DNA of 64,000 nt, from assembly GCF_016026235.1 (NCBI RefSeq), contig NZ_CP065613.1; one strand, 5' to 3'. Shown piece by piece: positions 6,419-59,580 of this stretch. Numbering within the stretch: position 1 is the first letter of the stretch; every line of letters begins with the position of its first letter. Origin of the DNA: Escherichia coli. GTDB lineage: Bacteria; Pseudomonadota; Gammaproteobacteria; Enterobacterales; Enterobacteriaceae. The position numbers and the translations under genes are program-made. A model generated the notes under the pieces. The model was not told the origin of the DNA. It made no database searches and saw nothing but the letters and a program-made list of their open reading frames with translations.

Positions 6419-6599
<181 letters not shown>

Positions 6600-6613
6600 C
6601 GATCACAATACAA

Positions 6614-6949
6614 TCAGTTCTTTTTCACGAACTCAGATTTCAGTTTCATCGGACCAAAACCGTCGATTTTGCAATCGATGTTATGGTCGCCTTCAACCAG
6701 GCGGATGTTTTTCACTTTGGTGCCAATTTTCAGCATCGAAGAGCTACCTTTCACCTTCAGATCTTTAATGATGGTAACGCTGTCGCCGTCAGCCAGCAGA
6801 TTGCCGTTAGCATCTTTAACGATCAGCTCATCGCTTTCCTGTGCAGGTTCTGCGTCGTTCCATTCGTAGGCACATTCCGGGCAGATGTACATGCCGTTAT
6901 CTTCGTAGGTGTATTCGGAGTTGCATTTTGGGCAGTGTGGTAATGACAT
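6614..6949 (-). CDS. yjdM: PhnA/YjdM zinc-ribbon protein
   Basis: Start [30 protein letters not shown] (two CxxC pairs); 111 aa. Confidence 0.88.
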
Positions 6950-7350
6950 GTGGATTTCCTCAAAAGTCAGCAGGGCAAAAGCGCCAAAAAACGGCAGATT
7001 GCCGAAAAAGGCCGCAATTATACACAAAATCCCTGAGTTTGTCGGGGGTACTGCTGATTTTAGACGACGATCGTTTTCATTTGAAAGGAAACGCAAAAAG
7101 AAAATAATCTTTTTGCCTCCATTTATTATTTAAGATAAGGTTAATGCTCTACTTGTTCTTTTTTTTATTCACATGATATTTTTATCTTTCTGACGTTTTA
7201 AACGTATCGGAAGATGTTATTTATTCTAATAAAAAACAACACTCTAAATATAAAATTATTTCTTGCAGTAATTATAAAAGCCGAAAACAGAACTCAAAAA
7301 CAATCTGGCTAAATAAAAGTAATAAAATTTGCTTTAAGGAAGAATTTTCT

Positions 7351-9579: not shown

Positions 9580-10442
9580 CCAAGACGTTACTGGACGGCC
9601 CCGGTCGCGTGCTGGAGTCGGTTTATCCCCGCTTTTTAGTGGATCTGGCGCAGGGCGATGATGCCCGCCTTCCACAAGCCCATCAGCAGCAGTTTCGTGA
9701 ACGACTGATGCAGGAACTTCTTTCGCGTGTGCAGCTTCAGACATGGACGAACGGCGGCATGTTAAATGCGCCGCTTAGCCTGCGACTGACAATGGTGGAA
9801 AAACTGGCGTCGATGCTGGATCCCGGTCATCTGGCGCTGACGCAGATCGCGCAGCATCTGGCGCTGCTGCAAAAAATGGATCACCGCCAGCACTCTGCTT
9901 TCCCGGAGCTCCCCCAGCAAATTGCCGCCTTGTATGAGTGGTTTTCAGCCCGTTGTCGCTGGAAGGAAAAGGCGTTAACGCAACGAGGCCTACTGGTGCA
10001 GGCAGGTGATCAGAGCGAGCAAATTTTTACCCGCTGGCGTGCTGGGGCGTATAACGCCTGGTCGTTGCCTGGGCGCTGTTTTATCGTTCTCGAAGAGTTG
10101 CGCTGGGGTGCATTTGGCGATGCCTGCCGTCTGGGAAGCCCGCAAGCGGTGGTGTTGTTGCTGGGTGATTTGCGCGAGAAAGCGACACAACATCTGGCAG
10201 AGAGTATCAATGCGGCACCGACCACGCGTCACTATTACCATCAGTGGTTTGCCTCTTCGGGAGGGGAGCATGCTGATTTTTTAAGTTGGCTGGGAAAGTG
10301 GTCCATGGCAGATAAACAGCCCGTTTGCTGGTCAGTGACCCAACGCTGGCAAACAGTCGCGCTGGGGATGCCACGACTCTGTTCAGCGCAGCGTTTGGTG
10401 GGGGCAATGGTCGAGGAAATCTTCTCTGTAAATTTGGCGTAA
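9576..10442 (+). CDS. yjcZ: YjcZ, partner protein of CrfC
   Basis: 288 aa ORF overlapping crfC stop by 4 nt (translationally coupled). Confidence 0.8.
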   Translation: MTKTLLDGPGRVLESVYPRFLVDLAQGDDARLPQAHQQQFRERLMQELLSRVQLQTWTNGGMLNAPLSLRLTMVEKLASMLDPGHLALTQIAQHLALLQKMDHRQHSAFPELPQQIAALYEWFSARCRWKEKALTQRGLLVQAGDQSEQIFTRWRAGAYNAWSLPGRCFIVLEELRWGAFGDACRLGSPQAVVLLLGDLREKATQHLAESINAAPTTRHYYHQWFASSGGEHADFLSWLGKWSMADKQPVCWSVTQRWQTVALGMPRLCSAQRLVGAMVEEIFSVNLA

Positions 10443-10705
10443 ATAATCAGTTACATCAATGAGTCCTAAACGAAATCCATGTGTGAAGTTGATCACAAAT
10501 TTAAACACTGGTAGGGTAAAAAGGTCATTAACTGCCCAATTCAGGCGTCAACTGGTTTGATTGTACATTCCTTAACCGGAGGGTGTAAGCAAACCCGCTA
10601 CGCTTGTTACAGAGATTGCATCCTGCAATTCCCGCTCCCCTTTTGCGGCCGTCGCGCTGATTTTTCTGGCGTTTGCGGAAATGGGCCAACTCTGCGAGGA
10701 AAGCT

Positions 10706-12208
10706 ATGCTGAAAAGGAAAAAAGTAAAACCGATTACCCTTCGTGATGTCACCATTATTGATGACGGTAAACTGCGTAAAGCCATTACCGCAGCATCACT
10801 GGGTAATGCAATGGAATGGTTCGATTTTGGTGTTTATGGTTTTGTTGCTTACGCATTAGGTAAAGTTTTTTTCCCGGGGGCTGACCCCAGCGTGCAGATG
10901 GTTGCTGCACTTGCCACTTTCTCCGTTCCCTTTCTGATTCGACCGCTTGGCGGGCTCTTCTTTGGTATGTTGGGCGATAAATATGGTCGCCAGAAGATCC
11001 TCGCTATCACTATTGTGATTATGTCGATCAGTACGTTCTGTATTGGCTTAATACCGTCCTACGACACGATTGGTATTTGGGCACCGATTCTGCTGTTGAT
11101 CTGTAAGATGGCACAAGGTTTCTCGGTCGGCGGTGAATATACCGGGGCGTCGATATTTGTTGCGGAATACTCCCCTGACCGTAAACGTGGCTTTATGGGC
11201 AGCTGGCTGGACTTCGGTTCTATTGCCGGGTTTGTGCTGGGTGCGGGCGTGGTGGTGTTAATTTCGACCATTGTCGGCGAAGCGAACTTCCTCGACTGGG
11301 GCTGGCGTATTCCGTTCTTTATTGCTCTGCCGTTAGGGATTATCGGGCTTTACCTGCGCCATGCGCTGGAAGAAACTCCGGCGTTCCAGCAGCATGTTGA
11401 TAAACTGGAACAGGGCGACCGCGAAGGTTTGCAGGATGGCCCGAAAGTCTCGTTTAAAGAGATTGCCACTAAATACTGGCGCAGCCTGTTGACATGTATT
11501 GGTCTGGTAATTGCCACCAACGTGACTTACTACATGTTGCTGACCTATATGCCGAGTTATTTGTCGCATAACCTGCATTACTCCGAAGACCACGGGGTGC
11601 TGATTATTATCGCCATTATGATCGGTATGCTGTTTGTCCAGCCGGTGATGGGCTTGCTGAGTGACCGTTTTGGCCGTCGTCCGTTTGTGCTACTTGGTAG
11701 TGTTGCCCTGTTTGTGTTGGCGATCCCGGCGTTTATTCTGATTAACAGTAACGTCATCGGCCTGATTTTTGCCGGGTTACTGATGCTGGCGGTGATCCTT
11801 AACTGCTTTACGGGCGTTATGGCCTCTACCTTGCCAGCGATGTTCCCGACGCATATCCGTTACAGCGCGCTGGCGGCGGCATTTAATATTTCGGTGCTGG
11901 TTGCCGGTCTGACGCCAACACTGGCGGCCTGGCTGGTCGAAAGCTCGCAGAATCTGATGATGCCTGCCTATTACCTGATGGTAGTGGCGGTGATTGGTTT
12001 AATCACCGGCGTAACCATGAAAGAGACGGCAAATCGTCCGTTGAAAGGTGCGACACCGGCGGCGTCAGATATACAGGAAGCGAAGGAAATTCTCGTCGAG
12101 CATTACGATAATATCGAGCAGAAAATCGATGATATTGACCACGAGATTGCCGATTTGCAGGCGAAACGTACCCGCCTGGTGCAGCAACATCCGCGAATTG
12201 ATGAATAA
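10706..12208 (+). CDS. proP: proline/glycine-betaine osmosensing MFS transporter
   Basis: Start MLKRKKVKPITLRDV; 500 aa; 12 TM MFS with C-terminal coiled coil (IDDIDHEIADLQAKRTRL). Confidence 0.92.
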   Translation: MLKRKKVKPITLRDVTIIDDGKLRKAITAASLGNAMEWFDFGVYGFVAYALGKVFFPGADPSVQMVAALATFSVPFLIRPLGGLFFGMLGDKYGRQKILAITIVIMSISTFCIGLIPSYDTIGIWAPILLLICKMAQGFSVGGEYTGASIFVAEYSPDRKRGFMGSWLDFGSIAGFVLGAGVVVLISTIVGEANFLDWGWRIPFFIALPLGIIGLYLRHALEETPAFQQHVDKLEQGDREGLQDGPKVSFKEIATKYWRSLLTCIGLVIATNVTYYMLLTYMPSYLSHNLHYSEDHGVLIIIAIMIGMLFVQPVMGLLSDRFGRRPFVLLGSVALFVLAIPAFILINSNVIGLIFAGLLMLAVILNCFTGVMASTLPAMFPTHIRYSALAAAFNISVLVAGLTPTLAAWLVESSQNLMMPAYYLMVVAVIGLITGVTMKETANRPLKGATPAASDIQEAKEILVEHYDNIEQKIDDIDHEIADLQAKRTRLVQQHPRIDE

Positions 12209-12220
12209 GCTGAAACGGAT

Positions 12221-12250
12221 GGCCTGATGTGACGCTGTCTTATCAGGCCA
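12221..12250. repeat. REP element downstream of proP
   Basis: ggcctgatgtgacgctgtcttatcaggcc palindrome. Confidence 0.6.
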
Positions 12251-12319
12251 ATTGAACTCTTAAGGTTCACTTAATCTCTGCCGCGCATACTCTCCTCCAG
12301 ATTAACGGAGGAGAGTGCA

Positions 12320-12409
12320 ATGAAAAACCGTGTTTATGAAAGTTTAACTACCGTGTTCAGCGTGCTGGTGGTCAGCAGCTTTCTTTATATCTGGTTTGCC
12401 ACGTACTGA
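12320..12409 (+). CDS. pmrR: small membrane protein PmrR-like (29 aa)
   Basis: ATG 12320, MKNRVYESLTTVFSVLVVSSFLYIWFATY, stop 12407..12409; preceded by GGAGGAG SD; overlaps 3' end of basS on the opposite strand. Confidence 0.6.
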   Translation: MKNRVYESLTTVFSVLVVSSFLYIWFATY

Positions 12410-13485
12410 TCTTTCTTCAGCCGTATCCAGGCGCGCGTGCCAGAAGTCTCTTGCCGGTTTTGCAGGAAAAACTGCCCGTGATGCAACTGTGTAATGCGGC
12501 TGACAATACTTAACCCCAGACCAATCCCGCCATAACGGCTGTCCATACGTACAAACGCTTTACTCAACTCCCCGCATTTACTCTCATCAATACCCGGTCC
12601 TTCATCTTCAACGGCCATGACCGCTCCGCTATCTTCTTGCAGCTTAATCATAATGTTGCTGCCTTGCGGGCTGTAACGATGGGCGTTTTCTACTAGGTTT
12701 CGCAATAACATCCGCAGCAGGGTTGCATCACCCTGAACGGTGATGTCGGCGGCGCTCTCTGGCAATAGCAGGGTTTGCTGTCGCTGGTCGAGCATGGTAC
12801 TGAGTTCGTCATACGAGGGGAGAATGACATCTTCCAGCAGTTTTACATGTTGATAATTACCGGAAGAAAATGACTGTCCGGCACGCGCCAGTTGCAGCAG
12901 CTGGGAGACGCTCTCCATCATCTGATCAAGCCGTGCCACTAACGGTGCTACATCAATGTGATGCGTTTTCGCCAGCAGTTCCAGATGCAAACGTACCCCC
13001 GCCAGTGGCGTTCGCAGTTCGTGCGCGACGTCAGCGGTAAATAACCTTTCGTTATCCAGCGTGCTGGTCAGGCGACTGACCAGATCGTTCAACGCCGAAA
13101 CCACCGCTTCGATTTCGAGGGTGGCGCTGTGAATGGCAATGGGCGTTAAGTTGTCGGCGGTGCGCGCTTCCAGCTCTTTTTGCAGCTCCGCCAGCGGGCG
13201 GGTGATGCGGCGTACCGCCTGATAGCAGATAAATAGCGTCAGGCTGACCATAAAGACGCCGGGGACAATCAGGCTGGCGACCGCCTCGCGGATCTCACGC
13301 ATGATGTGGCGATCGTTGTTGCGATTGTCGCGTAGCGCCTGCTCAAACAGCTGAATCTGCTCGGTACTTTCATGCCATAGCCAGAAGACGCTGATCAGCT
13401 CAAACACCAACAAAATGGCCCCGATGGTCAATATCAGCCGTTGGCGCAGCGATATTGGTCGGCGCAGAAAACGCATCAGATTCAA
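12385..13485 (-). CDS. basS: sensor histidine kinase BasS/PmrB
   Basis: 366 aa ORF; H-box ADVAHELRTPLAG; HATPase motifs; start overlaps basR stop. Confidence 0.9.
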   Translation of the reverse strand: MNLMRFLRRPISLRQRLILTIGAILLVFELISVFWLWHESTEQIQLFEQALRDNRNNDRHIMREIREAVASLIVPGVFMVSLTLFICYQAVRRITRPLAELQKELEARTADNLTPIAIHSATLEIEAVVSALNDLVSRLTSTLDNERLFTADVAHELRTPLAGVRLHLELLAKTHHIDVAPLVARLDQMMESVSQLLQLARAGQSFSSGNYQHVKLLEDVILPSYDELSTMLDQRQQTLLLPESAADITVQGDATLLRMLLRNLVENAHRYSPQGSNIMIKLQEDSGAVMAVEDEGPGIDESKCGELSKAFVRMDSRYGGIGLGLSIVSRITQLHHGQFFLQNRQETSGTRAWIRLKKDQYVANQI

Positions 13486-14154
13486 TTAGTTTTCCTCATT
13501 CGCGACAAGCATATAGCCAAAGCCGCGCACGGTGCGGATACGGGCTTTGCCCACTTTGTCGCGCAGATTGTGGATATGCACTTCCAGGGTGTTGGTCGAG
13601 GGTTCATTGTCCCAGTTATAGATGTCGTTGTAGAGAATTTCCCGATGCACCGGACTGCCTGCTTTGAGCATTAACCGTGACAGCAGAGCATATTCTTTGG
13701 GCGTCAGAATCAACTCTTCACCGCCCATCCATACCTGACGGCGCCCCATGTTCAGCGTCAGATTGCCAACAATCAGCTCACTTTCGCCCTGATTATTATG
13801 GCGTCGTAGCAGGGCGCGGATACGGGCATGTAACTCTTCCAGCGCAAAAGGCTTCACCAGATAGTCGTCGGCACCGACATCCAGCCCGGCGATTTTGTCG
13901 GTCAGCGTATCGCGAGCGGTGAGGATCAGTACCGGCAGGGTATATTTTTTCTGCCGGATACGGGCGAGAAAATGCAGTCCATCTTCGTCGGGTAACCCTA
14001 AATCCAGTACCACCAGGCTGTAATGACCGGCCTCAAGGCTTTGTTCCGCCATCCGCGCGGTTGTCACGCCATCGCACGCGTAGCCTTCGGTTTGCACCGC
14101 CAGAATCAATCCCTGCAATAACAGCGTATCGTCTTCAACAATCAGAATTTTCAT
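13486..14154 (-). CDS. basR: response regulator BasR/PmrA
   Basis: 222 aa; MKILIVEDD receiver domain plus OmpR-type wHTH. Confidence 0.93.
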
Positions 14155-15794
14155 TCACTCACTCTCCTGCAAGTTTGCAGAATATCATCCGCAGCCTGGT
14201 AATACTTCGTCTCAACGCCAGTTAATCCCAATAGCGTGGAGAATAAATTGTCTTGTGAATAGTGTTGCGTTTGCGCCTGTTTTTGCAGGCAGTTCTGGTC
14301 AACCTGATACCGTTTTTGATAATCCTCCGACAGCCACAGCAGCATCGGCACCTGTTTTTGGCTATCTGGGGCGATGGCATAAGGCAGACCGTGCAGATAG
14401 ATGCCATTTTCACCTAACGATTCACCGTGGTCAGAAAGATAAACCAGGCTGGTGGTAAATTTATCCTGATGTTCTTTCAGCAGATTAATCGCTTTATCAA
14501 CAATATAGTCGACGTAAACCAGCGTGTTGTCGTAAGTGTTCACCAGTTGCTCTTTGGTACAGGTCTGGATCTCATTGGTGTCGCAGGTTGGGGTAAATTT
14601 CCTGAACTGCGGCGGATAGCGGTTGTAATAGGTCGGACCGTGGCTGCCGATGGTGTGTAAGACAATCACGCCATCACCCTGCAGGTTATTGATGTACTCT
14701 TCCAGCCCGTGGAACAGCACTTCGTCATAGCATTCGCCGTTGATGCACTGACCAGGCAGATTCAGCGCGGTGACGTTCTGGTGAGGCACGCGGTCGCAGG
14801 CACCTTTACAGCCACCATCGTTGTCATTCCACAGCACGTTGATGCCCGCTCGCTGAATGATATCCAGCACGCCTTCCTGGTGCTGTGCCAGCTCTTCTTT
14901 GTAATGCTCACGCGGCATATCCGAGAACATGCACGGTACTGAAACTGCCGTTGCCGTGCCGCAAGATGCGGTATTAGGGAAATAGACCACGTTATCTTTC
15001 GCCAGCCGCGGGTTAGTTTCACGCGGGTAGCCGTTGAGGGAGAAGTTCTCCGCCCGCGAGGTTTCGCCGACAATCAGGATGGTCAAATTTTTACGTTTTT
15101 CGTTCTGCATTAATGGGTTGCGGTGCGCGTCTTCACCAATTCGCACCAGCGGCAGATTTGCCAGTCGCTGATGGGAGTACCATGACCAGCTGGCAACAAT
15201 GCTGTTAGAGGGGCTTAAGGACTTCACCAGCTCTTTGTTGTTGCGGAACAACGAGGCGTAGTCTTTATAAAACAGTGCGGCGACCAGCAAAATCAGCAGT
15301 ACAGAAACCAGAATATTGGCTCCACGGAAAAGAACACTGCGCAGACGCGAGGTGGCAGGTTTGATTTTAATCCAGCAGGCAATCAGCGCAGCAAGCACGC
15401 CGCTGAATCCCAGCGTTAATAACATTTGCGGTGTCATCAGCGCATAGCTTTCTGCCGGAGTGGTATCAATAATATTGGCAATCATCGAGCGGTCGATGAC
15501 GATGCCGTAAGTCATTATGAAATATTGTGCAGCCGCGCCAACCAGAATAAACAGGCAGGCCAGCGGTCGATTAAGCCATAAGAAAGAGCTTAGTGTCAGG
15601 ACAATATTAATCACGCTGAAGGCGACGACCGGCATCGACAAGAAAACCAGTACGTTATGCAGCGAGTCCAGCGGCAGCGCCTGCAACACCTGTTTAAAAA
15701 AGGCAATATTCAGGCAGATAGAGATATAAAAAGCGGCCAACAATAGCCAGGCGAGTAAATTCAAAGAGGGTCTTTTTAGTAGGCGCTTCAACAT
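14151..15794 (-). CDS. eptA: lipid A phosphoethanolamine transferase EptA/PmrC
   Basis: Start [14 protein letters not shown]; 547 aa; sulfatase-like domain; 4-nt overlap with basR (pmrCAB operon). Confidence 0.9.
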
Positions 15795-15844
15795 CACGGT
15801 GTTTCCATCGAACAAAGTGCGCATATGCTCGCAAAGCAAAATTA

Positions 15845-15878
15845 AGCCAACCTTAAGTTCTTAAGGTTGGCTTTTATC
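15845..15878 (-). terminator. intrinsic terminator downstream of adiC
   Basis: Perfect hairpin gccaaccttaag/cttaaggttggc followed by T-run. Confidence 0.6.
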
Positions 15879-15897
15879 TTTGCTGGATTAAGGGGAA

Positions 15898-17235
15898 TTA
15901 ATCTTTGCTTATTGGTGCATCTAAGGGATACGGGTTTTTATGCAGCCGGTTGTAATTCAGCGCATACATGGCGGTGATGACCATCAGGGTGACAAATGAC
16001 CACATAACCTCTTTCGCCCCGGACCCCACCACGGCCCAGATGCAGTAGAGGAAGGCAATGGTAGTAACTGCCAGATATGCCGGGCGTGCTTTACCAAAGT
16101 GACCGTGTCCGAGCAGCAGTAACGCCGCACAGGTGTAAAGATATGGCACCAGTGTAAAGATGACCGAGACGGAAGAAACCAGACCGAATTCTTTGGTCGC
16201 GTTTGGTGAAATGCTGCTGAGCTGGAAGATGGTCATCAAAATACCGACGATAATCAGCCCCGCCACTGGCGTACCCGCTTTATTTACACGGGCAAAAATC
16301 GGTGGGAACAGTCCGTCATCGGCAGCGGCTTTCGCCGTTTGACCCGCCAGCAATGTCCAGCCGCCCAGTGAACCTAAGCAACCCGCAGCTGCGCAGAAGG
16401 AAACAATGGCCCCGGCGGTGTCACCCAACGCCATCCGTGCGGCATCACCGAATGGCGAGGCAGAAACGCGCAGTGCGGCATTAGGGATCATCCCCATAAT
16501 CGCGGTGGTGGAGAGCACATAGCAAACGGCGGCAATCAATACCCCACCGATGGTGGCGATAGGGACATTGCGTTTCGGGTTTTTCACCACACCTGCGGCA
16601 ACGGAGGCACTTTCCACACCGATGAACGACCACAGCGTAACGTTAAGGGTACTTTGAATTGCACCGAAGGTGCCCAGGCCGCTGACGTTCCATGCCGCCA
16701 TATAGGTTTCACCACGGAACCAGAACCAGCCAAATACGGCAATCCCGACGATGGGGATCAGCGCCAGCACGGTGGCAACGGCCTGCACACGGGTGATCAT
16801 TTTCGGACCGACAATGTTCAGCAGGACGAAGATCCACAGCACCACGACGCAGGTGATGGTTAATACCAATGGATCTTTCAGAATCGGGAAGAAGTAACTT
16901 AAATATCCTACGCCAATGACCACCATGGCGATATTGCCGATCCAGCAGGCCAGCCAGTAGAGGACGTTGGTTTGATAACCGAGAAACGGGCCAAAGCAGC
17001 GGCGGGCGTAAGCGTAAGAACCACCAGGACTTGGATCGAGGAACGACATTTTGGCGTATACCATCGAGAGCCCCAGCGCACCGATAATCGTCACCAACCA
17101 TCCATAAATGGCAATCCCGCCAGTGGAGGCCAGGTTTGCAGGTAACAGAAAAACACCTGACCCCATAATATTCCCCGACACCATCAGGGTGACGGGGATT
17201 AAGCCCACTTTGTGAGCATCAGCATCCGAAGACAT
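15898..17235 (-). CDS. adiC: arginine:agmatine antiporter
   Basis: 445 aa APC-family transporter; starts [19 protein letters not shown]. Confidence 0.92.
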
Positions 17236-17371
17236 AATTAAACTCCTGCGAAGGCGAGCTTCGTGATAATAAATTACGTCATATCATACGCCTGCATTCG
17301 ATAGTTGAATTATTATCGACCGGGTTATCGCTGATGCCGTTATTAATATAGCTCTTCGTTAAGGTTAAAAA

Positions 17372-18133
17372 TCAGGCGACAGTGCGTTCTCTGTGCTGAC
17401 TAACATAATGCAGCGGTGTCATACCGTAGAAGTCTTTAAAGACAGAAATAAAGTACGACGTACTGTTGTAGCCGCAGGACTGTGATACCTGAGAGATATT
17501 TTTACCGTCCATCATTAATTCATTTACGGCATAACGCATGCGGCAGGTGGTGATTATTTGGCTATAACTGGTGTTTTCGCTTTTCAGCTTTTTCTTTAAC
17601 AGACTAGGGCTAAGGCATAAACAACTGGCTACCATACTAAGATTCCAGTCTTTGTGAATATCGCTTTCAATAATTTGATAAACGCTGTCACTTACACAAT
17701 TACGTAACATATACATCATTAATGAAAGGAATTTTTTACTGTCGAGAAAACGGGATAGCACCGTGAATAATAATGCGCGTGTTCGTTCCTTTTCTGACTC
17801 AGTTTCTGCGGGCATCATGCTATGTTGCGCGGCAACGCGAAAGACGTCTGGCGTCAGGCATGGCAGGGTGAGTATGGGCGTAGCGCTACGTTGCCATACT
17901 GGTATTTGCGAGAGATCTTTATTCAGAAACCGGAGGTAATCTTTGATGATGTCGTGACTAATATGAGCAACCAAAGTGTTGTTAAGAGAGGAGACGTCGA
18001 TAATATTATTTTCACAATTTAATAACGCCATATGGTTAGCTTTAAGGCTAATAGGTTCTTTCCCATTCACCCTTATCCAGACATCTTTTTCAGTCAATAA
18101 AACAATACAAGGTTGGTCGCTGCAAATCCTCAT
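17372..18133 (-). CDS. adiY: AraC-family regulator AdiY
   Basis: 253 aa; C-terminal AraC HTH; between adiA and adiC. Confidence 0.9.
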   Translation of the reverse strand: MRICSDQPCIVLLTEKDVWIRVNGKEPISLKANHMALLNCENNIIDVSSLNNTLVAHISHDIIKDYLRFLNKDLSQIPVWQRSATPILTLPCLTPDVFRVAAQHSMMPAETESEKERTRALLFTVLSRFLDSKKFLSLMMYMLRNCVSDSVYQIIESDIHKDWNLSMVASCLCLSPSLLKKKLKSENTSYSQIITTCRMRYAVNELMMDGKNISQVSQSCGYNSTSYFISVFKDFYGMTPLHYVSQHRERTVA

Positions 18134-18312
18134 ACATGTACTCCTGAGTGCGAATAAAAGACCAGTTCTCGCTAAAGCAAAGCGATACCGGGAAATGGTT
18201 ATATAATTGTATGATGAATATAAACATGCATAAAAATAACGAGTTTTACTAATATTACAAATTTTTATAGTAATTTCTCATGTACATATTTTTTTACAGG
18301 ATAAATAACAGG

Positions 18313-18342
18313 CAAAAAAAAGCGCGGGGTGGGGCCGCGCAA
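18313..18342 (-). terminator. intrinsic terminator downstream of adiA
   Basis: aaaaaaaagcgcggggtggggccgcgc: GC hairpin followed by U-run on the minus-strand transcript. Confidence 0.6.
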
Positions 18343-18457
18343 AAAGTATGACATTTTTGTTTGCAGCAATTTTTATGAAAACGTTGCCATACTCAAAAGG
18401 CCTAAGGCCAGGCGGCGTAATGTTATTTAAACAATTACGCCTTCAGCGGAATAGTGG

Positions 18458-20725
18458 TTACGCTTTCACACACATAACGTGGTAAATACCGTCAATAATT
18501 TCAGTCCCTTCAGTTTCGTGTTCAAATCCAGGGAAATGGTGGTCCCAGGATTGCAGCGAGCGTAAATAACTTACTTGCGGACTGTTTTTATCGCCGAAGT
18601 TTTCACCAGACAGCAGCATCGGGATTCCTGGCGGATACGGGATAACTGAGTTTGCCGCGATGCGTCCTGGCAGATTTTCAATGGATACCAGTTCGACATT
18701 GTTGTCGACAATCGCGTTGTACGCTTCACGCGGGGTGATTTCCGCCACCGGCAGGCCGGAATAGGCTTCGTTCAACCGTGCGCCAGGGTTGTTTTCTTTC
18801 AGCCAGGCAAACATGGTGTCACCCAGATCGTGAATCCCCATGTTCGCGTAAGTGTCAGGATATTGTTCAACAAGTTCCGGCATCACCTGCGCCAGCGGTG
18901 TGTTGGCGTCATAGTGGCGTTTGAAGGAGCAAAGGGTGTTAACCAGAGTCCCCCATTTCCCACGGGTTACGCCCATAGAGAACAGGAACATAATTTGGAA
19001 GTCAGTGGTGCGGGTAGGCACAATGCCATGGCGACCAAGCCAGGCAGTGACCAGCGCCGCCGGAACACCGGTTTCTTCCAGTTCACCATCTTCACCCATT
19101 CCCGGAGCAAGGATGCTGACTTTAATCGGGTCGAGCATACTCCAGTTATCCGGAATATCTTTGAAGCCGTGCCAGCTTTCGCCCGGATGCATTACCCAGC
19201 AGTCCTGAACGGTGGTCAGCAGTTTTGTTGGTGCGTCAGCAAAGTCATAGGTTTTGCCGGTTTGTGGGTCGGTGACGACTTCTTTGTTCCACGGTTTGAA
19301 GAACCAGCTACCGTCAGCGGTGAACTCTTTATACAGCCGCGCCATCGCCTGACGAAAATCAACCGCTTCGTCAATCACTTCTTGTGTCAGTGACAGGCCG
19401 CTGTTGCCGTCCATCATCGACACCGCCACGTCGTTGGATGCGCAGATGGCATACAGCGGGGAGGTGGTGGCATGCATCATGTAGGCCTGGTTGAAGCGGG
19501 AGAAGTTAATCGCCCCACGACCTTCACGTACATGAATATAAGAAGCCTGTGAAAGCGCATTCAGCAGTTTGTGGGTGGAGTGGGTGGCGAAAACGGTAGG
19601 ACCGTTGTGATCGCCAGGTTCGCCGCGCATGGCATAGTGATCGGCATAGATCGGGTTGAAACGTGCATAGCCGTACCAGGCTTCGTCAAAGTGCAGACGA
19701 TCGGAGGTTTTTTCCAGCAGATCCTGCGCTTCTTTAGCGTTATAACACACGCCGTCATAGGTGCAGTTGGTCACCACGCAGTAAGACGGTTTTTGCCCGG
19801 CTTTGTCTTTAGTCAGCGGGCTTTCACTGATTTTCTTCTGCAAGGATTCAGGTTGCATTTCCTGCGGATAGATTGGCCCGATAATGCCGTAGCGGTTGCG
19901 GCTTGGCACCATATAGACCGGTTTCGCGCCTGTCAGCATCAAACCTTGTTCGATGGATTTATGGCAGTTACGGTCAACAACCACTACATCGTTATCGGTC
20001 ATGCAAGCCTGCATGATGGTGCGGTTAGAGCCGGAAGTACCGACGACTACCGACCAGGAGCGATCGGCACCAAATACGCGTGCGGCATATTTTTCGCTTT
20101 CGCCAAATGCGCCAGTATGGTCAAGCAAAGAACCGAGGGAAGTTCGTTCGATGCCCATGTCGGTGCGAAACAGATTTTCACCATAGTAGTCATGGTAGAA
20201 ACGTCCGGCGGGTGTTTTGGTAAAACCAACGCCGCCCTGGTGGCCTGGCGCTGCCCAGGAATATTCATGGATGTCACTATATTTCATCAGCGCGCTGAAC
20301 AGTGGCGGCAACAGCTGCTGGCGGTAGCGGGTCATCGCGGCAACGGCGCGTCCGGCGATAAAGTCGGCGGTATCTTCCAGAATCCAGGCGAATTCATCGA
20401 CAAGCTCCAGCAGATCCCGGTCCATTGCGGCGAGGGCTTTTTCCCGATCGCCCAACAGGAAGACCGGCACGTTTTGTTGGCGCTCATGAAGCTTACCGAT
20501 CAATTGTCTGACGTTTTGATGTTCGTCCGGATGTTCCATTTGATAGCTGAACATCAGGCAGTCAATGGCTTCGTTCGAAGAGAGAATGGCAAAACCATCA
20601 TCAAAGGAGGTGGATTTAATCACGGTAACATTTTGCTGGCTTAAAGCATCTGCCAGACGCTCAACGGCGTTACCGACCCAGGTGTCTTGATGGAGAAACT
20701 CGCTTTCAACAATTAATACTTTCAT
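18458..20725 (-). CDS. adiA: biodegradative arginine decarboxylase
   Basis: 755 aa; PLP fold-III decarboxylase, paralogous to CadA in this window (STHKLL lysine motif). Confidence 0.93.
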   Translation of the reverse strand: MKVLIVESEFLHQDTWVGNAVERLADALSQQNVTVIKSTSFDDGFAILSSNEAIDCLMFSYQMEHPDEHQNVRQLIGKLHERQQNVPVFLLGDREKALAAMDRDLLELVDEFAWILEDTADFIAGRAVAAMTRYRQQLLPPLFSALMKYSDIHEYSWAAPGHQGGVGFTKTPAGRFYHDYYGENLFRTDMGIERTSLGSLLDHTGAFGESEKYAARVFGADRSWSVVVGTSGSNRTIMQACMTDNDVVVVDRNCHKSIEQGLMLTGAKPVYMVPSRNRYGIIGPIYPQEMQPESLQKKISESPLTKDKAGQKPSYCVVTNCTYDGVCYNAKEAQDLLEKTSDRLHFDEAWYGYARFNPIYADHYAMRGEPGDHNGPTVFATHSTHKLLNALSQASYIHVREGRGAINFSRFNQAYMMHATTSPLYAICASNDVAVSMMDGNSGLSLTQEVIDEAVDFRQAMARLYKEFTADGSWFFKPWNKEVVTDPQTGKTYDFADAPTKLLTTVQDCWVMHPGESWHGFKDIPDNWSMLDPIKVSILAPGMGEDGELEETGVPAALVTAWLGRHGIVPTRTTDFQIMFLFSMGVTRGKWGTLVNTLCSFKRHYDANTPLAQVMPELVEQYPDTYANMGIHDLGDTMFAWLKENNPGARLNEAYSGLPVAEITPREAYNAIVDNNVELVSIENLPGRIAANSVIPYPPGIPMLLSGENFGDKNSPQVSYLRSLQSWDHHFPGFEHETEGTEIIDGIYHVMCVKA

Positions 20726-25884: not shown

Positions 25885-27531
25885 TTACTTAGTGCAGTTC
25901 GCGCACTGTTTGTTGACGATCTGCTGGAAGAAGTCGTTACCTTTGTCATCGACCAGGATAAACGCCGGGAAATCTTCTACTTCGATTTTCCAGATAGCTT
26001 CCATACCCAGCTCCGGATAAGCGACGCATTCCAGATGCTTGATGCTCTGCTGCGCCAGTACCGCCGCCGGACCGCCGATACTACCGAGGTAGAAGCCGCC
26101 GTGTTTATGACACGCGTCGGTAACCTGCTGACTGCGGTTACCTTTCGCTAGCATGATCATGCTGCCGCCGTGGGATTGCAGCAGATCCACGTAGGAGTCC
26201 ATACGACCTGCGGTGGTTGGGCCAAGTGAACCTGATGGATAACCGGCAGGGGTTTTCGCCGGACCCGCGTAGTAGATCGGGTGATCTTTGATGTACTGCG
26301 GAAGTTCTTTACCGGCGTCAATCAGCTCTTTCAGCTTGGCGTGTGCAATATCTCGGCCCACGATAATGGTGCCGGTGAGCGACAAACGAGTGGAAACCGG
26401 ATATTGCGAAAGCTGGGCGAGGATCTCTTTCATCGGGCGGTTAAGGTCGACCTTCACCGCTTCGCCTTCACCGGCCTGGCGCAGTTCTTGTGGAATGTAC
26501 TGACCTGGATTGTGTTCCAGTTTTTCGATCCAGATACCTTCGCGGTTGATTTTCGCTTTAATGTTACGGTCAGCGGAGCAGGAGACGCCCATGCCTACCG
26601 GGCAGGATGCGCCGTGACGTGGCAGACGGATAACGCGAATGTCGTGCGCGAAGTATTTACCGCCAAACTGCGCGCCAAGACCGAGTTTCTGGGCCTCTTC
26701 CAGCAGTTCCTGTTCCAGCTGGACATCGCGGAACGCCTGACCATGTTCGTTCCCTTCCGTCGGCAGTTCATCGTAATAGTGAGCGCTTGCTAACTTAACG
26801 GTTTTCAGGTTGGTTTCCGCAGACGTACCGCCAATCACAAACGCGATATGGTACGGCGGGCAGGCTGCAGTACCGAGGGTACGCATTTTCTCGACGAGGA
26901 AGTTTTTCAGTTTGCCGGGAGTCAGCAGGGCTTTGGTTTCCTGGTAGAGATAGGTTTTGTTGGCAGAGCCGCCGCCTTTCGCAACGCAAAGGAATTTGTA
27001 CTCATCGCCATCTACCGCGTACAGGTCGATTTGTGCAGGCAGGTTAGTGCCGGTGTTGACCTCTTTGTACATGTCCAGCGCCGCGTTTTGCGAGTAGCGC
27101 AGGTTATCCTCGATATAGGTGTTATAGACGCCTTTCGACAGCGCTTCTTCATCACCGCCACCGGTCCACACGCGCTGGCCTTTTTTACCGACGATGATCG
27201 CGGTGCCGGTATCCTGGCAGGTCGGCAGCACGCCTTTGGCGGCGATTTCGGAGTTTCTTAAGAATTGCAGTGCCACGTACTTGTCGTTTTCGCTGGCTTC
27301 TGGATCGTGAAGAATAGCCGCAACCTGTTTCTGGTGTGCCGGACGGAGCATGAAAGAAGCGTCGTGAAAGGCTTGCTGCGCCAGCAGGGTCAGGGCTTCT
27401 GGTTCCACTTTCAGGATGGTTTCGCCGTCGAAGTCGGCAACGCTAACGTAATCGGAAGTGAGTAGATAGTATTCGGTATTGTCTTTCCCCATCGGGAAAG
27501 GTGCCTGGTAGATAAAGGGTTTGTTTGACAT
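25885..27531 (-). CDS. fumB: class I (Fe-S) fumarate hydratase, anaerobic
   Basis: 548 aa. Confidence 0.93.
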
Positions 27532-27608: not shown

Positions 27609-28949
27609 TTATAAGAACCCGTACATCGCGGCGAAGATCCAGCCGAAGACGCACGATACGCTCACACCAATCAACCCCGGCAGAATAAAACTGTGGTTGA
27701 TGACGAAGCGACCGATGTGGGTGGTGCCGGAACGGTCAAACTGAATCGCTGCCAGATCGCTCGGATAAGTCGGCAGGATGTAATAACCGTAGCAAGCCGG
27801 TGCTGAAGCCACGATGTATGCCGGATCAACGCCGATCGCCAGCGCGACCGGAACAATCGCCGCCAGCGCCGCAGCCTGAGAGTTTACAAACTTGGAAACC
27901 AGCAGCAGAACAATGGCATACGCCCACGGATACTCTTTCACCATTTCACCCAGTACGCCCTGAATTTCAGACATATGCGCACCGAACATGGTTTCTGCCA
28001 TCCATGCGATACCGTACACCGCCACGATGGCGATCATACCGGAACGGAAGACTTCGTTTTTTGAGATAGACGCGGGATTGGTTTTGGTCAGGATAATAAT
28101 CAGCGCCCCGGTCAGCAGCATAAACATCTGAATAACCAGTACCATCGACAGCGGTTTGCCGCCGAAGGATGGACGCAGGTCCGAATCAGCACCAAGAAGG
28201 GCGACTACAGCGATTGCCCCGAGGAAAATCCACATTGCCAGCCAGTTGCTTTTCGGCAGTTTTTTATCCAGCAGCGTCGCGGTATCACCGTAAACATACT
28301 CACGGTTTTCCGGTACGGAGATGAATTTCTGGAACTCTTCGTCTTTATCCAGATCTTTACCGCGGAACCAGCTGAAGATACCGATCGCCAGGATACCGAT
28401 TAACGTCGATGGAATGGTGATTGCCAGCAGATCGAGGAACTCAAGATGGCGACCATCAAAGGTGACATTACCCAGCATCGCAACCAGAGACACGACCGCA
28501 ACCGACACCGGACTGGCGATAATCCCCATCTGTGCACCGATAGAACTTGCCGCCATCGGACGTTCCGGACGGATGTTGTTCTTAATGGCGACGTCGTAGA
28601 TGATCGGCAGAATGGTGTAAACCACATGACCCGTACCGCAAAGAATGGTCAGTGTACAGGTCACAAACGGCGCGACAATTGAGACATATTTCGGGTTGCG
28701 GCGCAGCAGCTTCTCGGCAATTTGCAGCATGACATCAAGACCGCCCGAAGCTTGCAAGGTCGCCGATGCCGCCACCACCGCAATGATAACCAGCATGACA
28801 TCAACTGGTGGTTTACCTGGCTGAAGGTGGAAGACGAAGACCAGAATGACCAGACCGATACCGCCTAATAAACCCAGCGCGATACCACCCTTTCTGGCAC
28901 CATAAAACAGACATATCAGTATTATGATAAGTTGGATAGTAAATAACAT
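27609..28949 (-). CDS. dcuB: anaerobic C4-dicarboxylate transporter DcuB
   Basis: 446 aa; paralog of dcuA in this window. Confidence 0.93.
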
Positions 28950-40236: not shown

Positions 40237-40601
40237 GCTCTTCTCCTAATTTCATTTTTGAATTTGGAGTCCGGGTCATGATGTATAACTATTTCCTGAC
40301 CAGACCAAACTGGCGCTAAGATTACTCACGAAAAAAGGATTAATCCTAAAGATTAGGTGAAATAACACAAAAGTTTCTGTAAGTGAGAACTTGAGGTTTT
40401 TTATTAACACATCAGGATCGCAAGTTGATATCATGAAAAGATAAACATTCAATGTTTACAATAGATTGCGTGACGTCTTCTGGTTAAATTTATGTAATAA
40501 AAATTATGCGGCAAATAAATTGCCGCAACATATTATACCAACAGGAACATACAAAAACTCAACAACAAATATTCCCTAGCATGAATCAACCCAGGAGTTA
40601 C
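40237..40601 (-). promoter_or_regulatory. Pcad promoter/operator region (cadBA control region)
   Basis: Intergenic cadC-cadB; AT-rich with perfect palindrome tgcggcaaataaattgccgca at 40507..40527. Confidence 0.5.
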
Positions 40602-41510
40602 TTATTCTGAAGCGAGAAATTTGTCGAGATAAGGTACAACATAAGGAACAGAAGTCTGGAATATACCATTTTCAATCCAGTAAAGGGTGTTTGCCCCTGG
40701 GCGTAAATTAAAGGCGGTGAGATATGCATCAGCCGCTTCCCGGTTCATCCCCTTCATTTCATAAACCTTGCCAAGCAACACATAATTTAGCCAGGACATT
40801 TCAAGATCAATGCCAGTATTTATCGCCTGGTAAGACTCATCTGTTTTACCTTTTACCAGAGCACTGACCGCTTTTATTTGATATATAATGGACAGGTTGT
40901 TCAATTCCGGCAGTGTAACAATGTTGTCTATTTCTGTGTTCAGTGCTGCTAATTGTTTTTCATCTAAAGGGTGTTGAGAATGGCGCACGATATCAACTAA
41001 TGCTTTTTCTGCTCTCGCGTAGGTAAATTCTGGGGATGATTGAACAATCTCACCTAATAATTCACTGGCACGATTCAATGATTTGTCATCGCCATGCAGT
41101 AAATAATCATGAGCCTGATAAAAATTAGTTAATAACGCACCACGATGAGGCAAAATTTGCTGGAGCGTCTCCTGCATTCGTTGTGGCCACGGTTGGTTTA
41201 ACGCTTTTGATAAACTCTCCAGTAAATCATTTTGAATCGCCAGCTGATTACCGTTAGTGATGACATAACGTTTATCCAGCATGGTTGAACCATCTGCATT
41301 GTCTACCAATTTTATCGACATAAAGCATTGTTGAGCACGGTATTGGCGCTGATTAACAAAGGCAATAGATAATGTTTTACCGGAACTGCTCGGTTCATCA
41401 ATGTTGTAGTTGATTTTGTCATGCACCATAAAGGTGGAGAAGGTGTTAAGTGATGTCGCCACCAAATCACCCACGCCTATCGCGTAAGAGAGCTGATACG
41501 GGGAACTCCA

Positions 41511-42803
41511 CTGAGGGATCCCCAGAAAATTTAGTAAACCATTATCATATTGGTATACCGTTGCTGTAGAACTTTCAGCCCTGCGTCAAGTGACAGTGTG
41601 TTTAGTATGAGTGGAGAATGTCGAATCACATTCTCCGCCAGTTTTAATAACGAGATGACTCGCCTGTGCTTCACTGTATTTGCCTGATATTTATGATGTA
41701 TCCCTTTGTTTTCCAGGCTGAAACCGCTTAACCACATAATGATACTGGCTAATGTTGCGATCAGACTCAATACCGTGACCCGCCCGGATGAATGACTGGC
41801 ACCAAACCGTAGTCCAAATCCCCAGCGAGGATTTTTTCATCCCTGAAATTTTGCTCAATTTGCATTCTACGGCTGTATAATTTCATTACCTGTTTTGGCG
41901 AGAACTCAGTACTGTTTGTGAAAATAAACCATGGTGATTTCCCGGCAGTACGAGCTTTAGCCGTCACCGATGGTCTGGTTGCTCTTTCCTTCGAGCGTTT
42001 AAATCTACGACCTTTAGGCTTACTTTTATAAAGATAAAAATGCCCTTCATGTTGTGCATTTTTATCTCGACCCAGCAGGCCTTCACCTAAATAAATTGCT
42101 GTCGTTGATGCTTTTGTGCCTGAGTCCGACACCTTTTCCCAGCCATTACCAACATTGTAATAATGATTGCCCAGTACCCGGCAAATATAGGTCCAGCCAC
42201 GGGAGCGGAGCTGTTGGAACCATCGCCCCTGAAAACCGGCATCTGTAATAACAATGACATCAGTCCCGGGGGAAAAGCACTCAGCAAGCGATTCCAGAAA
42301 ACGCTCATGTACATCTGCATTCGCTGTCTGTGATGATGGAACGACACAACTCATCAACGGTAAAGAACGCCCGTCACATGCCAGGCTTGCCCGCAAAAGC
42401 TGAAAACGAGAGGCATGATAAGCACTCCAGTCAATGAGTATCACAACACGAGACATTCCCCGCGTAATCTTTTGGGTAATTCGCTGAAAAATGGTGGAAA
42501 CCTCATTTTGCAAATGTCGATTCCCCAACAGTCGATCCACCCGCTTTATTTTGTTTTTAACTGATGCCGTACCGGTTAAATGACGCCCGATACTGGTAAG
42601 TGTGAGGGAAGCGCCATTTATTACAGCATTAGTTGCGTCAATCAGTGATTTTTGACGGTAAAGATGCAAAGGGGCCAGTATGTTGTTAAGGAAATTTTGG
42701 CATAATGAACGTGCAGGCATAGTGGTGATCTCCTTGAAATTGTTAGCACAATCAATTAGATCACATCTCACTATGCCTGTCTTGTTTTCTGGGGATTCCT
42801 CAG
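41511..42803 (-). mobile_element. IS10-like insertion sequence (IS4 family), ~1293 bp, inserted in cadC
   Basis: Imperfect terminal inverted repeats CTGAGGGATCCCCAGAAAA (41511..) and revcomp CTGAGGAATCCCCAGAAAA (..42803); flanking direct repeat gggaactcc(a) at 41501..41510 and 42804..42813; encodes IS10-related transposase. Confidence 0.85.
41531..42720 (-). pseudogene. IS10-family DDE transposase, disrupted by a frameshift near 41797..41808
   Basis: ATG 42720 preceded by AAGGAGAT SD; motifs KRVDRLLGNRHL, ILIDWS, ITDAGF, YSRRMQIEQNFRDEK align with IS10 transposase; frame ends at 41767 and C-terminal homology (QANTVKHRRV...) continues in another frame (41531..41770). Confidence 0.75.
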
Positions 42804-44018
42804 GGGAACTCCAGCTGTTACAACTTTTATTTACCATATTAATGTCAATATCGCGTGGATTGAGCAAAATACGCGATTTGCTCATCGGAAGACGTGTATC
42901 AAGACTTGAAAACGCTACCAGTGCTACACAGATACCTAAGGACAACAGGAAAAAAAACCATACCCAAAAGGTAGTGAATCGTTTGCTTTTAACTGGGGAT
43001 TGTTCAGGTGGCGTTGCGGTGTTTTGAATGTTAAGGCTGTGGGAGGGAGAATCTGTGGCAGGAACCGCCTCTGGTATAGGGGGAGGCGAAGATAGCATTA
43101 TTTCCTCTCCCTCTTCTTCGCTGTACCAGATAACCGGCACCATTAATTTATAGCCGCGCTTTGGTACAGTAGCGATATAGACAGGACTATCTTCATCATT
43201 ATCTTTTAATGAATTACGTAGTTCTGAGATACTCTGCGTCACAACGTGATTGGTGACAATACTTCTCTTCCAGACATTATCGATAAGTTCATCCCTGCTA
43301 AGTACTTCGCCACTGTGTTGAGCAAAGAAAACCAGAAGATCGATTAATCTCGGCTCAAGGGTAAGTTGACGCCCATTGCGGCTAATTTGGTTTATGGACG
43401 GAGTAACAAGCCATTCGCCAACGCGAACTACAGGTTGTTGCATAATAGAAACTCATTCGAAAAGGGAATGATGCAATGATAATTGCCACAACCTATTTTT
43501 ACCATCTATAGATGGGTTTATTTACATATTATTGGTGAATGCAAGACGTTATTTTTACCAGCCATAAACTTCTTGATTACATGGTATTACGAAAGGATTT
43601 TACTGAGAACCAGAAGTAATATTCCTTACCATCAAAATTCATCATCTTTGCCAAAGAAAAATGTTCAGAAAATAATCCATGGAAAATTGTCCGGAGCGCT
43701 TACTATTTTAATGGATTGTTAGTCTTTGCATGAGCAAGGGGACTGATACATTTCTCTTTGTTCTCATTCAGAAAATCTCATCAGTCGCCGTTCAGACCGG
43801 TGTTGTGCTTTATGGATGCGTTACGCTCCTGATGACGTCATTTGACGTTCAACAGCATCACGGGGTCGCACGACATTTCACGTCAGTTAGTGCTATAGCT
43901 CAGGAACAAATTTTCCCGAATTGGGATATGCCCGCAAATTGCTGGTGATGTGGGGAGAATCTGGTTGAGTTCGGTAGAATTGATTTGGCGGCAGAACGCT
44001 TAAATCGTGGCGTCCTGA

Positions 44019-44050
44019 AACGAAAAACGGACCTCCGTGGAGGTCCGTTT
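44019..44050 (-). terminator. intrinsic terminator downstream of pheU
   Basis: aaacggacctccgtggaggtccgttt hairpin followed by U-run on the minus-strand transcript. Confidence 0.7.
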
Positions 44051-44059
44051 ATATGAATT

Positions 44060-44135
44060 TGGTGCCCGGACTCGGAATCGAACCAAGGACACGGGGATTT
44101 TCAATCCCCTGCTCTACCGACTGAGCTATCCGGGC
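44060..44135 (-). tRNA. pheU: tRNA-Phe (GAA anticodon)
   Basis: Reverse complement reads GCCCGGATAGCTCAGTCGGTAGAGCAGGGGATTGAAAATCCCCGTGTCCTTGGTTCGATTCCGAGTCCGGGCACCA (76 nt with encoded CCA). Confidence 0.97.
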
Positions 44136-44241
44136 AACGGGGCGCATTAAACCGTAATCTGCACATCTCGTCAACCTAATTTCAGTAAAAGCGATTCAAC
44201 TGCTTAAGATTGCGGCAAATCGCTTCTTTTCTGTGTTTCTG

Positions 44242-44817
44242 TCAGGTCAATGCGCCACCCTGGCGGCAGCGGGCGAAGCGCAGGATATCTTCCGCCAGCC
44301 GATGTGCAGTGTCGACATCCGCCTGGCTACGATTCACCAGCATCCGGCTCAGGCATCCTTCCAGCACCAGTTCCATCTGCTTTGCTACCATCGCCGGATC
44401 GTCAACTTCCAGCGTGGTTAACAGTTCGTGGGTGAAATCGTAGGCCGCGCTTTTTTGCTGATCGGCCAGTTGATGAATAGGGTGGCCAGGATCGGGATAA
44501 AACGTACAGGCAGCGATAAATAGACAGCCCGGATAGCGGTTGTTTTTAACGCACTCCGATAACGCCTGATAACGTGCCAGCAGCTTTTGTTCGGCGGTTT
44601 GCGTTTCGTCCAGCATCAGCTGACGACGCCAGACATCTATCTGTTGGCTAAGATAACGCAGCGCATCGTAGAGGATTGCCTCTTTGTCTGGCCAGAAGCG
44701 GCGCAGCTCGTCCAGTGGATAATCCACACGTTCAGCAACCATCTCCAGCGTGGTGTTGGCAATCCCTTGTAATTCTAATAATTTCAGGGCTTCTCCCAGT
44801 ACATCTTCACGTTGCAC
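44242..44817 (-). CDS. yjdC: TetR-family transcriptional regulator YjdC
   Basis: ORF 44242..44841; TetR-type N-terminal HTH; start probably the GTG giving [14 protein letters not shown]. Confidence 0.8.
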
Positions 44818-58208: not shown

Positions 58209-58244
58209 GCAATATGATCCTACCCACGTAATATGGACACAGGC

Positions 58245-59111
58245 CTAAGCGAGGTTCTGGTTTTCAAATTGTTCCGGACTGAGGCCGCCACACCAACTGT
58301 GCCGCCGCCACCGATTGTAATCACATTCGATATAATTAAACACCGTTGCCCGCATTATTTCCCAGCTGATAAAGTGTTCTCCATGGATACATTCCACTTT
58401 CAGCGAATGAAAGAAGCTTTCCACGCAGGCATTATCGTAGCAGCAACCTTTTGCGCTCATACTTCCACGCAGATTATGCCGCTTCAGTTGCGCCTGATAA
58501 TCTGCTGAACAGTACTGGCCTCCACGGTCCGTGTGAACGATAACGTTCCGGGGCCTCTTACGCCGCCACAGCGCCATCTGCAGGGCATCGCAGGCCAGTT
58601 GCGCCGTCATGCGTGGCGACATTGACCAGCCAATAACGGCACGTGACCACAGGTCAATGACCACTGCCAGATACAGCCAGCCTTCATCTGTACGTAAGTA
58701 CGTGATGTCTCCTGCCCACTTCTGGTTCGGGCCACTGGCGTAAAAATCCTGCTCCAACAGATTTTCTGACACAGGCAGGCCGTGTGCGCGGTAGCTGACC
58801 GGGCTGAACTTCCGGGAGGCATTTGCCCTCAGTCCCTGACGGCGCAGGCTTGCCGCCACGGTTTTTACGTTAAAGGGGTAACCCTGAGCACGCAGTTCAT
58901 CCGTCAGGCGTGGGGCACCGTAACGCTGTTTTGACCGGGTAAAAGCCGCGAGGACAACGCTGTCGCAGTGTTGGCGGAACTGCTGACGCGTGCTTATCCT
59001 TGTCCGCCGCTGACACCACGTATACCAGCCGCTGCGGGCCACCCGGAACACGCGGCACATTGCTTTGATGCTGAACTCAGCCTGATGTTTTTCAATAAAG
59101 ACATACTTCAT
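58245..59111 (-). CDS. insF: IS3 transposase OrfB (DDE integrase domain)
   Basis: 288 aa; [21 protein letters not shown]...; ATGA overlap with orfA stop. Confidence 0.9.
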
Positions 59112-59407
59112 TTCAGGCGCTTCGCGAAGTATGTCGCGGCCTTTTGGAGGATAGCCAGCTCTTCATCCCGTTCTGCCAGCTGGCGTTTGAGACGTGCAAT
59201 CTCGGTAGACATCTCCAGTTCACGTTCAGAAGACGTCTGCTGATTTTGCTGTTTACTGCGCCAGTTGTAGAGCTGTGATTCATACAGGCTGAGTTCACGG
59301 GCTGCGGCAGTAACACCGATGCGTTCAGCAAGCTTCAGGGCTTCACTGCGAAATTCAGGCGAATGCTGTTTACGGGGTTTTTTACTGGTTGATACTGTTT
59401 TTGTCAT
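59108..59407 (-). CDS. insE: IS3 transposase OrfA (HTH)
   Basis: Start [29 protein letters not shown]; ~99 aa. Confidence 0.88.
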
Positions 59408-59580
59408 GTGAGTCACCTCTGACTGAGAGTTTACTCACTTAGCCGCGTGTCCACTATTGCTGGGTAAGATCAATAACGGTACGACAGCTGTGTCGTGCCG
59501 TTTGTTTTCTCTGCGATAGTCACAAAGGTAATAGTTGAAATTCCCCTGCCACCTGGCAAAATATCCGTTCAACCATCAGC

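Follow-up and report, generated by a model that had tools for sequence, protein, structure and literature searches.

The interval between yjdC (dicD) and cadC is the standard site of island insertion at pheU (PMC7686366; bioRxiv 10.1101/549998). Two occupied genomes serve here for comparison. Escherichia coli O111:H11 strain 88-19539 carries the LEE at pheU, and strain Res13-Sevr-PER06-05-b-A (Res13) carries a ~71-kb pheU island with pap, tia, ireA and resistance genes. The integrase of the Res13 island (WP_001218820.1) is an intact protein of 420 aa, encoded by a gene that starts 197 bp past pheU, and Pfam assigns it the P4-type architecture Arm-DNA-bind_3 + Phage_int_M + Phage_integrase. The pheU–cadC spacer itself has also been annotated. 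In nearly every strain sampled, RefSeq labels the equivalent stretch a tyrosine-type recombinase/integrase that is frameshifted and missing its N terminus, and in K-12 the pseudogene yjdQ (b4654) lies there at 4362191-4362353. A literature search by the name yjdQ found no paper in the collection searched.

We analyzed this locus in a 64,000-nt stretch of E. coli DNA (the window), which is colinear with K-12 from 4,319,378 to 4,381,230 except for two IS insertions. Our analyses indicate that the pheU attB in the window is very probably intact and unoccupied, and that the spacer next to it is a fossil integrase scar rather than a neutral gap. Two differences from K-12 lie apart from this locus. 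One of the IS insertions, a 1,256-bp IS3 at 58215-59470, between ecnB and gdx (K-12 site ~4,376,701-4,376,705), is 99.9% identical to the IS3 copies of strain FDAARGOS_943. In addition, the yjdN–yjdM intergenic repeat (~100-bp spacing, window 6420-6600) has fewer copies than in K-12, a single window stretch aligning to four staggered K-12 positions at 4,325,905-4,326,384.

The pheU attachment site and its occupancy

ARAGORN found a single tRNA gene in the window, the tRNA-Phe(GAA) gene pheU, at 44060..44135 on the minus strand (Rfam RF00005, 68.3 bits). The gene is intact and, in per-segment alignment, 100% identical to K-12 pheU. The cadC ATG ends at 43443 on the minus strand, where an ORF encoding the CadC N terminus begins. 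The spacer between the two genes thus spans 43444..44059, with a GC content of 40.1% compared to 50.5% for the window. The attB core comprises the last 23 nt of the pheU 3′ end (44060..44082, no strand assigned) and is present in a single, unoccupied copy. With probes of 25 and 16 nt and up to 3 mismatches allowed, the tRNA 3′ end was not detected a second time in the window, and no second att core was found on either strand of the 64 kb at up to 6 mismatches, whether the 23-nt core or a 22-nt attR variant was used. Similarly, a blastn-short search with the 51-nt 3′ part of the tRNA revealed no decayed attR of an ancient island, only chance 8-11-mers.

A terminator scan predicted an intrinsic terminator for pheU at 44019..44050 (minus strand), in which a hairpin from 44050 to 44025 is followed by a T-rich tail. 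The predicted hairpin, with an 11-bp stem containing 6 GC pairs and a 4-nt loop, starts 9 nt past the tRNA end, so that a GC-rich stem and a T-run stand directly past the RNA gene, as expected for terminators of this type. It lies within island-derived sequence, and Res13 has the same hairpin after pheU, on the side of the island. An Rfam search of 43200-44400 at a permissive threshold returned only the tRNA, the two other matches being at chance level and far under their gathering scores; thus, the spacer holds no known sRNA or riboswitch. Two ORFs on the plus strand of the spacer, 43483..43722 and 43730..43948, were treated as chance ORFs; they are unannotated in K-12 and RefSeq and run antisense to the scar.

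A 1-kb junction probe matched 5425 of 5426 complete E. coli genomes and was uninterrupted in 3770 of the 5425 (~69%). Breakpoints of interrupted genomes were sampled in 6 of the 24 chromosomal rows listed, and in these the match breaks off at positions 781-783 of the probe, the last of which corresponds to window position 44082 and lies 23 nt inside the tRNA 3′ end. In both O111:H11 and Res13, the tRNA 3′ end is repeated at the distal junction (attR) as a 22-nt copy that lacks one base, and beyond it follow the terminator and the scar, with the same sequence as after pheU in the window. Indeed, present-day pheU islands (LEE, pap PAIs) insert in the tRNA 3′ end, upstream of the scar, which leaves the scar on their attR side. 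The 1-nt deletion in attR (CCC to CC, ~6760-6782 of both loci) is shared by the two unrelated islands, the O111:H11 LEE and the Res13 pap island, and lies on the side that should be chromosomal once site-specific integration has taken place. In strain T28R (NZ_CP142708.1) an IS1A is present inside the pheU–cadC interval; the scar region is thus an IS target in some strains.

No present-day island is located at pheU in the window. There is no island-sized insert between pheU and cadC, where 616 bp stand in place of the tens of kilobases found in occupied genomes, and no functional integrase beside pheU, only an internally deleted, frameshifted remnant. An earlier note on this DNA had proposed a pheU–cadC distance of ~616 bp, with no direct repeat of the tRNA 3′ end and no island. 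The distance proved exact and the repeat is indeed absent, while the third claim holds for present-day islands, the site being K-12-colinear and uninterrupted as in the majority of genomes above.

The empty state could also be secondary, a present-day pheU island having been carried and subsequently lost by integrase excision or homologous recombination. In occupied genomes, the island is flanked by imperfect direct repeats of ~0.2-0.5 kb, one being its own left end and the other the scar, with 94% identity over the tRNA end plus 133 bp and 74-89% over the integrase 3′ end, and excision and re-integration of pheU/pheV islands have been suggested in CC95 (PMC7686366). However, the window bears no mark of a past excision. 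Its spacer is 98.9-99.4% identical to K-12 and contains no chimeric island-type stretch, and an empty pheU is the commonest state. We therefore consider such a loss quite improbable.

Anatomy of the integrase scar

Island-derived DNA extends over 43586-44059, which amounts to 474 of the 616 bp (77%) of the spacer, and shares homology with present-day pheU islands, at their left end. All of its segments lie on the minus strand. The tRNA-proximal segment, at 43897..44059, is the integrase upstream region including the terminator, as delineated by blastn and MAFFT comparison with the Res13 island. Specifically, window positions 44135-43927 (the tRNA plus 133 bp) match Res13 26709-26917 with 93.8% identity over 209 bp (blastn, E 1e-81), and identity over the upstream region is 89% in the MAFFT alignment, compared to 81% in the DNA alignment of the integrase 3′ part.

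The upstream region is followed by a stub of the integrase N terminus at 43867..43896, consisting of an ATA in place of the start codon and 9 further codons. In tblastn searches with the Res13 integrase, aa 1-10 (MALTDAKIRA) align to 43896..43867, read as IALTDVKCRA (70% identity), and blastn matches nt -6..+21 of the integrase gene. By itself the stub is weak in the window (protein E 0.51, DNA E 9e-4), and only its counterparts in other Escherichia species and its exact position make it convincing. Its start codon is 163 bp from pheU, a distance similar to the 197 bp in Res13.

The C-terminal fragment, at 43703..43862, corresponds to aa 359-420 with the native stop codon at 43703-43705, and is supported by tblastn, blastn, the RefSeq pseudogene and yjdQ. 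With WP_001218820.1 as the query, aa 359-391 align to 43862..43779 and aa 397-420 to 43777..43706, in different frames (tblastn, E 1.5e-10). The fragment contains a 16-bp deletion over the catalytic tyrosine region, a second deletion and frameshifts. In blastn comparisons with the integrase 3′ part of Res13, 43864-43821 are 88.6% identical and 43817-43779 are 84.6% identical, while 43777-43586 match Res13 28170-28361 with 73.6% identity over 193 bp (E 3e-34). The last of these matches extends 117 bp beyond the stop codon; thus, the segment at 43586..43702 corresponds to the ~117 bp found after the integrase stop in present-day pheU islands, as the DNA alignment also indicates. In total, the spacer covers nt -196 to +21 of the integrase and then jumps to nt 1073-1380. 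Missing from the gene are ~1.04 kb, or codons ~11-358 (nt ~24 to ~1072).

The remnant retains the tip of the first domain (aa 1-10) and the last 25 residues (aa 359-383) of the Phage_integrase domain (210-383). Apart from aa 1-10, the arm-DNA-binding and central domains (PF13356, PF22022) are absent from it, and no open frame encodes a catalytic domain (PF00589) that includes the tyrosine nucleophile. Indeed, the DNA alignment with Res13 shows that the GVRAAY stretch carrying the catalytic tyrosine was lost to the 16-bp deletion. Because its domains are mostly gone, the codons around the tyrosine are deleted, ATA stands in place of the start codon, and what is left is interrupted by stops and frameshifts, the remnant, judged from its sequence, cannot encode a recombinase. 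No intact integrase exists elsewhere in the window, as tblastn of the full pheU-island integrase against all of it matched only two short pieces inside the spacer. When the remnant was translated in its three minus-strand frames, with stops masked, Pfam returned no family even at E 10, and a frameshift-repaired 54-aa peptide had no match at E 1e-3 in a tblastn search of 50,697 phage genomes. Recognition of the scar thus depends on comparison with close island integrases.

The scar shares its tRNA target and orientation with the integrases of pheU/pheV PAIs, namely that of Res13, those of papGII PAIs and those of the LEE in O26 and O111. Its integrase pieces are 58% and 67% identical to the Res13 protein, and its DNA is 74-94% identical. 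Unlike the full-length Res13 integrase, the scar consists of ~72 codons with a mutated start, lacks the tyrosine region and has no island behind it. Within K-12, its counterpart is yjdQ, which has the same position between pheU and cadC, the same strand and the same sequence, the matching window segment being 98.8% identical; on these grounds, the scar is the positional orthologue of that pseudogene. The yjdQ and RefSeq annotations include only a 160-163-bp C-terminal piece, whereas our analysis adds the ~10 first codons, the upstream region and the ~117 bp after the stop codon. These added parts show that the scar is an internal deletion of the whole left end of an island and not a stray C-terminal fragment. 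The scar is ordinary and already annotated, and the sole addition made here is its fuller anatomy, which is common to several Escherichia species.

The spacer might instead be regarded as plain AT-rich intergenic DNA next to an attachment site that was never used, with no integrase-derived sequence. Consistent with that description, the window has no intact integrase, att repeat or island-sized insert, and Pfam is empty on the raw frames. However, the left end of a present-day pheU island aligns to more than three quarters of the spacer, the lowest E value being 1e-81, tblastn detects the island integrase at E 1.5e-10, and RefSeq and K-12 independently annotate an integrase pseudogene. These results refute the reading. 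The earlier note had reported no integrase in the spacer and had named integrase-derived sequence there as a finding that would contradict it. Such sequence is present at 43703..43896 (minus strand), with similarity to a P4-type integrase by both tblastn and, over the integrase 3′ end, blastn (E 3e-34). The same note had also suspected a degenerate remnant in the AT-rich spacer, and in this it was correct.

A genomic SELEX list places an RpoH-holoenzyme site in the cadC–pheU spacer at 4,360,430 in older K-12 coordinates (PMC5493296). In our promoter scan, one sigma-70-like site was found, on the plus strand only and no more than in shuffles, and no cadC promoter was callable. By our own reckoning of the older coordinates, the SELEX site presumably corresponds to window positions ~43900-43960, near the old integrase upstream region.

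Age and origin of the scar

We examined the pheU neighborhoods of 80 Enterobacteriaceae species, anchored on DicD and reaching 10 kb. The order dsbD–dicD–pheU is conserved throughout, and cadC adjoins pheU only in Escherichia, specifically in E. whittamii, Escherichia sp. E1V33 and the divergent "E. coli" SCPM-O-B-8794 (SCPM-8794). These three loci share one layout, in which the left flank and the first ~7-10 integrase codons are joined directly to nt ~1060-1073, followed by the stop codon and ~117 bp beyond it. Small lineage-specific indels are the sole differences among the Escherichia scars. E. whittamii and SCPM-8794 retain the integrase ATG and the 16 bp that are missing from E. coli; in SCPM-8794, nt -196 to +23 of the integrase are continuous (E 1e-58) and a 22-bp piece of the upstream region is retained. 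The presence of the same large deletion in these species indicates that the deletion predates their divergence and that decay has gone on since. By these sequence comparisons, the scar is old and fixed.

Only the cadC-proximal 142 bp of the spacer (43444..43585, minus strand) have no island homology, as the similarity to Res13 ends at 43586. This is the sole indel-free segment of the spacer, with 89-96% identity and 0 gap columns against three other Escherichia species. It is among the best-conserved parts of the spacer across species, and its last ~45 bp are nearly invariant. The segment probably holds the cadC promoter or 5′ leader.

Further variation was noted around pheU in other genomes. 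In E. coli E69 (CP089930.1), no homology to cadC, cadB, cadA or the integrase was found within 9.8 kb downstream of pheU, which may reflect a Shigella-like cad deletion or an island. Escherichia sp. MOD1-EC7003 encodes an N-terminally truncated integrase (aa 64-215, 89% identity) that starts 45 bp past pheU. Many non-Escherichia genera, as well as E. whittamii and E1V33, have ~1.5-2.1 kb of extra DNA between dicD and the tRNA-Phe gene, which is absent in E. coli and puts the tRNA at ~12215-12850 rather than ~10683 of the fetched loci.

The combined data suggest a history in which an island integrated at pheU in the ancestor of these Escherichia species and an internal deletion removed most of its integrase gene. 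What remained of the island would then have been lost, with its distal att repeat lost, decayed or never kept, and the scar would have become fixed as chromosomal DNA. Later islands of the same integrase family would have entered the regenerated tRNA end, which would place the scar on their far side. A distal att repeat of the ancient island was looked for and not found, so that this history is drawn from the integrase scar alone.

Alternatively, pheU might still be occupied, by a domesticated fossil island whose surviving cargo is cadCBA, perhaps with dtpC–lysU and beyond, and whose distal att has decayed. The scar directly abuts cadC and has the same orientation, and among the 80 species loci, Escherichia is the only genus in which cadC, cadB, cadA, dtpC and lysU occur less than 10 kb from pheU. 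In other genera, pheU is accompanied by unrelated DNA or by intact integrases, and in Kosakonia, Phytobacter and Enterobacter soli, yjdF and proP are 0.2-4 kb from pheU, compared to 32 kb in E. coli. Base composition also differs across the site, as cadC and its upstream region have a GC content of 37-46% versus 51-57% on the dicD/dsbD side. However, a search allowing up to 6 mismatches revealed no degenerate att repeat in the 44 kb that lie toward cadC. Moreover, the island homology stops 142 bp before cadC, so that deletion of an island up to a pre-existing cadC fits equally well, and the species loci were compared over 10 kb, with the distal boundary lying beyond. The cad operon is, in addition, a widespread housekeeping-type acid-stress machinery in Enterobacteriaceae, which speaks against its being cargo. 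Overall, we regard continued occupancy by a fossil island as unlikely but deserving of consideration. More doubtful still is the specific proposal that cadCBA, possibly together with dtpC–lysU–ghoST, came to pheU with the scar integrase in the ancestor of the genus, in which case the old upstream region, being on the same strand, might feed cadC transcription and the acid-stress cad system of E. coli would itself be a domesticated island.

The cadC insertion and the meaning of the locus

The notable biology of the window is the inactivation of the neighboring cadC by ISEc60. The 5′ part of cadC, codons 1 to ~213 with the DNA-binding domain and the transmembrane segment, is located at 42803..43443 (minus strand) according to its translation and blastn to K-12 cadC. 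It is followed by ISEc60, an IS4 family element at 41511..42802 (minus strand), which was identified from annotated copies with 99.2-99.6% identity, its junctions and inverted ends, and the gap relative to K-12. The 1.29-kb element splits cadC past codon ~211-214 and is flanked by an 11-bp target duplication, GGGGAACTCCA, at 41500-41510 and 42803-42813. The 3′ part of the gene, encoding the periplasmic sensor domain, is thereby severed from the start and lies at 40601..41510 (minus strand; blastn to K-12, ORF 40602..41474). The cadB and cadA ORFs are intact. The transposase frame of this ISEc60 copy is apparently broken, as its ORF stops at 41767 and another one, of 79 aa, spans 41531-41770, compared to an annotated gene of 1,191 bp.

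The cadC::ISEc60 allele is found in no complete RefSeq E. coli genome. EIEC O96:H19 CFSAN029787 and related strains have 7-11 copies of the element in the chromosome and further copies on plasmids, and the closest chromosome, that of FDAARGOS_943, has 38. ISEc60 is also found on the pINV-type plasmid NZ_CP065612.1 with ipaH9.8, ospI, virK and icsA. That plasmid belongs to strain FDAARGOS_945 and not to FDAARGOS_943, and it was therefore discarded as evidence that the nearest relative is an EIEC strain.

Silencing of cadC is the typical route by which lysine decarboxylase is lost in EIEC. The EIEC pattern is a cad region that is colinear with K-12 and contains a silenced cadC (PMC5723341). The window likewise keeps a K-12-colinear cad region with an inactivated cadC, the IS here being ISEc60, although this exact insertion is absent from the complete RefSeq E. 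coli genomes. The cadC::ISEc60 allele thus leans away from a commensal and toward an enteroinvasive-type lineage. An empty pheU, being the majority state, says little about lifestyle. The earlier note had rightly called cadC knocked out, as the insertion and its target duplication confirm, but its view of the backbone as commensal-type finds no support in a locus that combines the majority state of pheU with an EIEC-like cadC disruption.

For the pheU locus, the rule that a tRNA gene with an integrase fragment signifies an island and the rule that lack of an integrase signifies a pristine site both lead to misreading; the site is properly classed as an unoccupied attB with a fixed integrase scar beside it. 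The scar places at least one integration of an island at pheU earlier than the divergence of several Escherichia species. It also provides incoming pheU/pheV islands with ~0.2-0.5 kb of 74-94% similar DNA beside attB. Through this similarity, islands could be more readily gained or lost by a RecA-dependent route, and the yjdC–cadC interval becomes harder to assemble and type.
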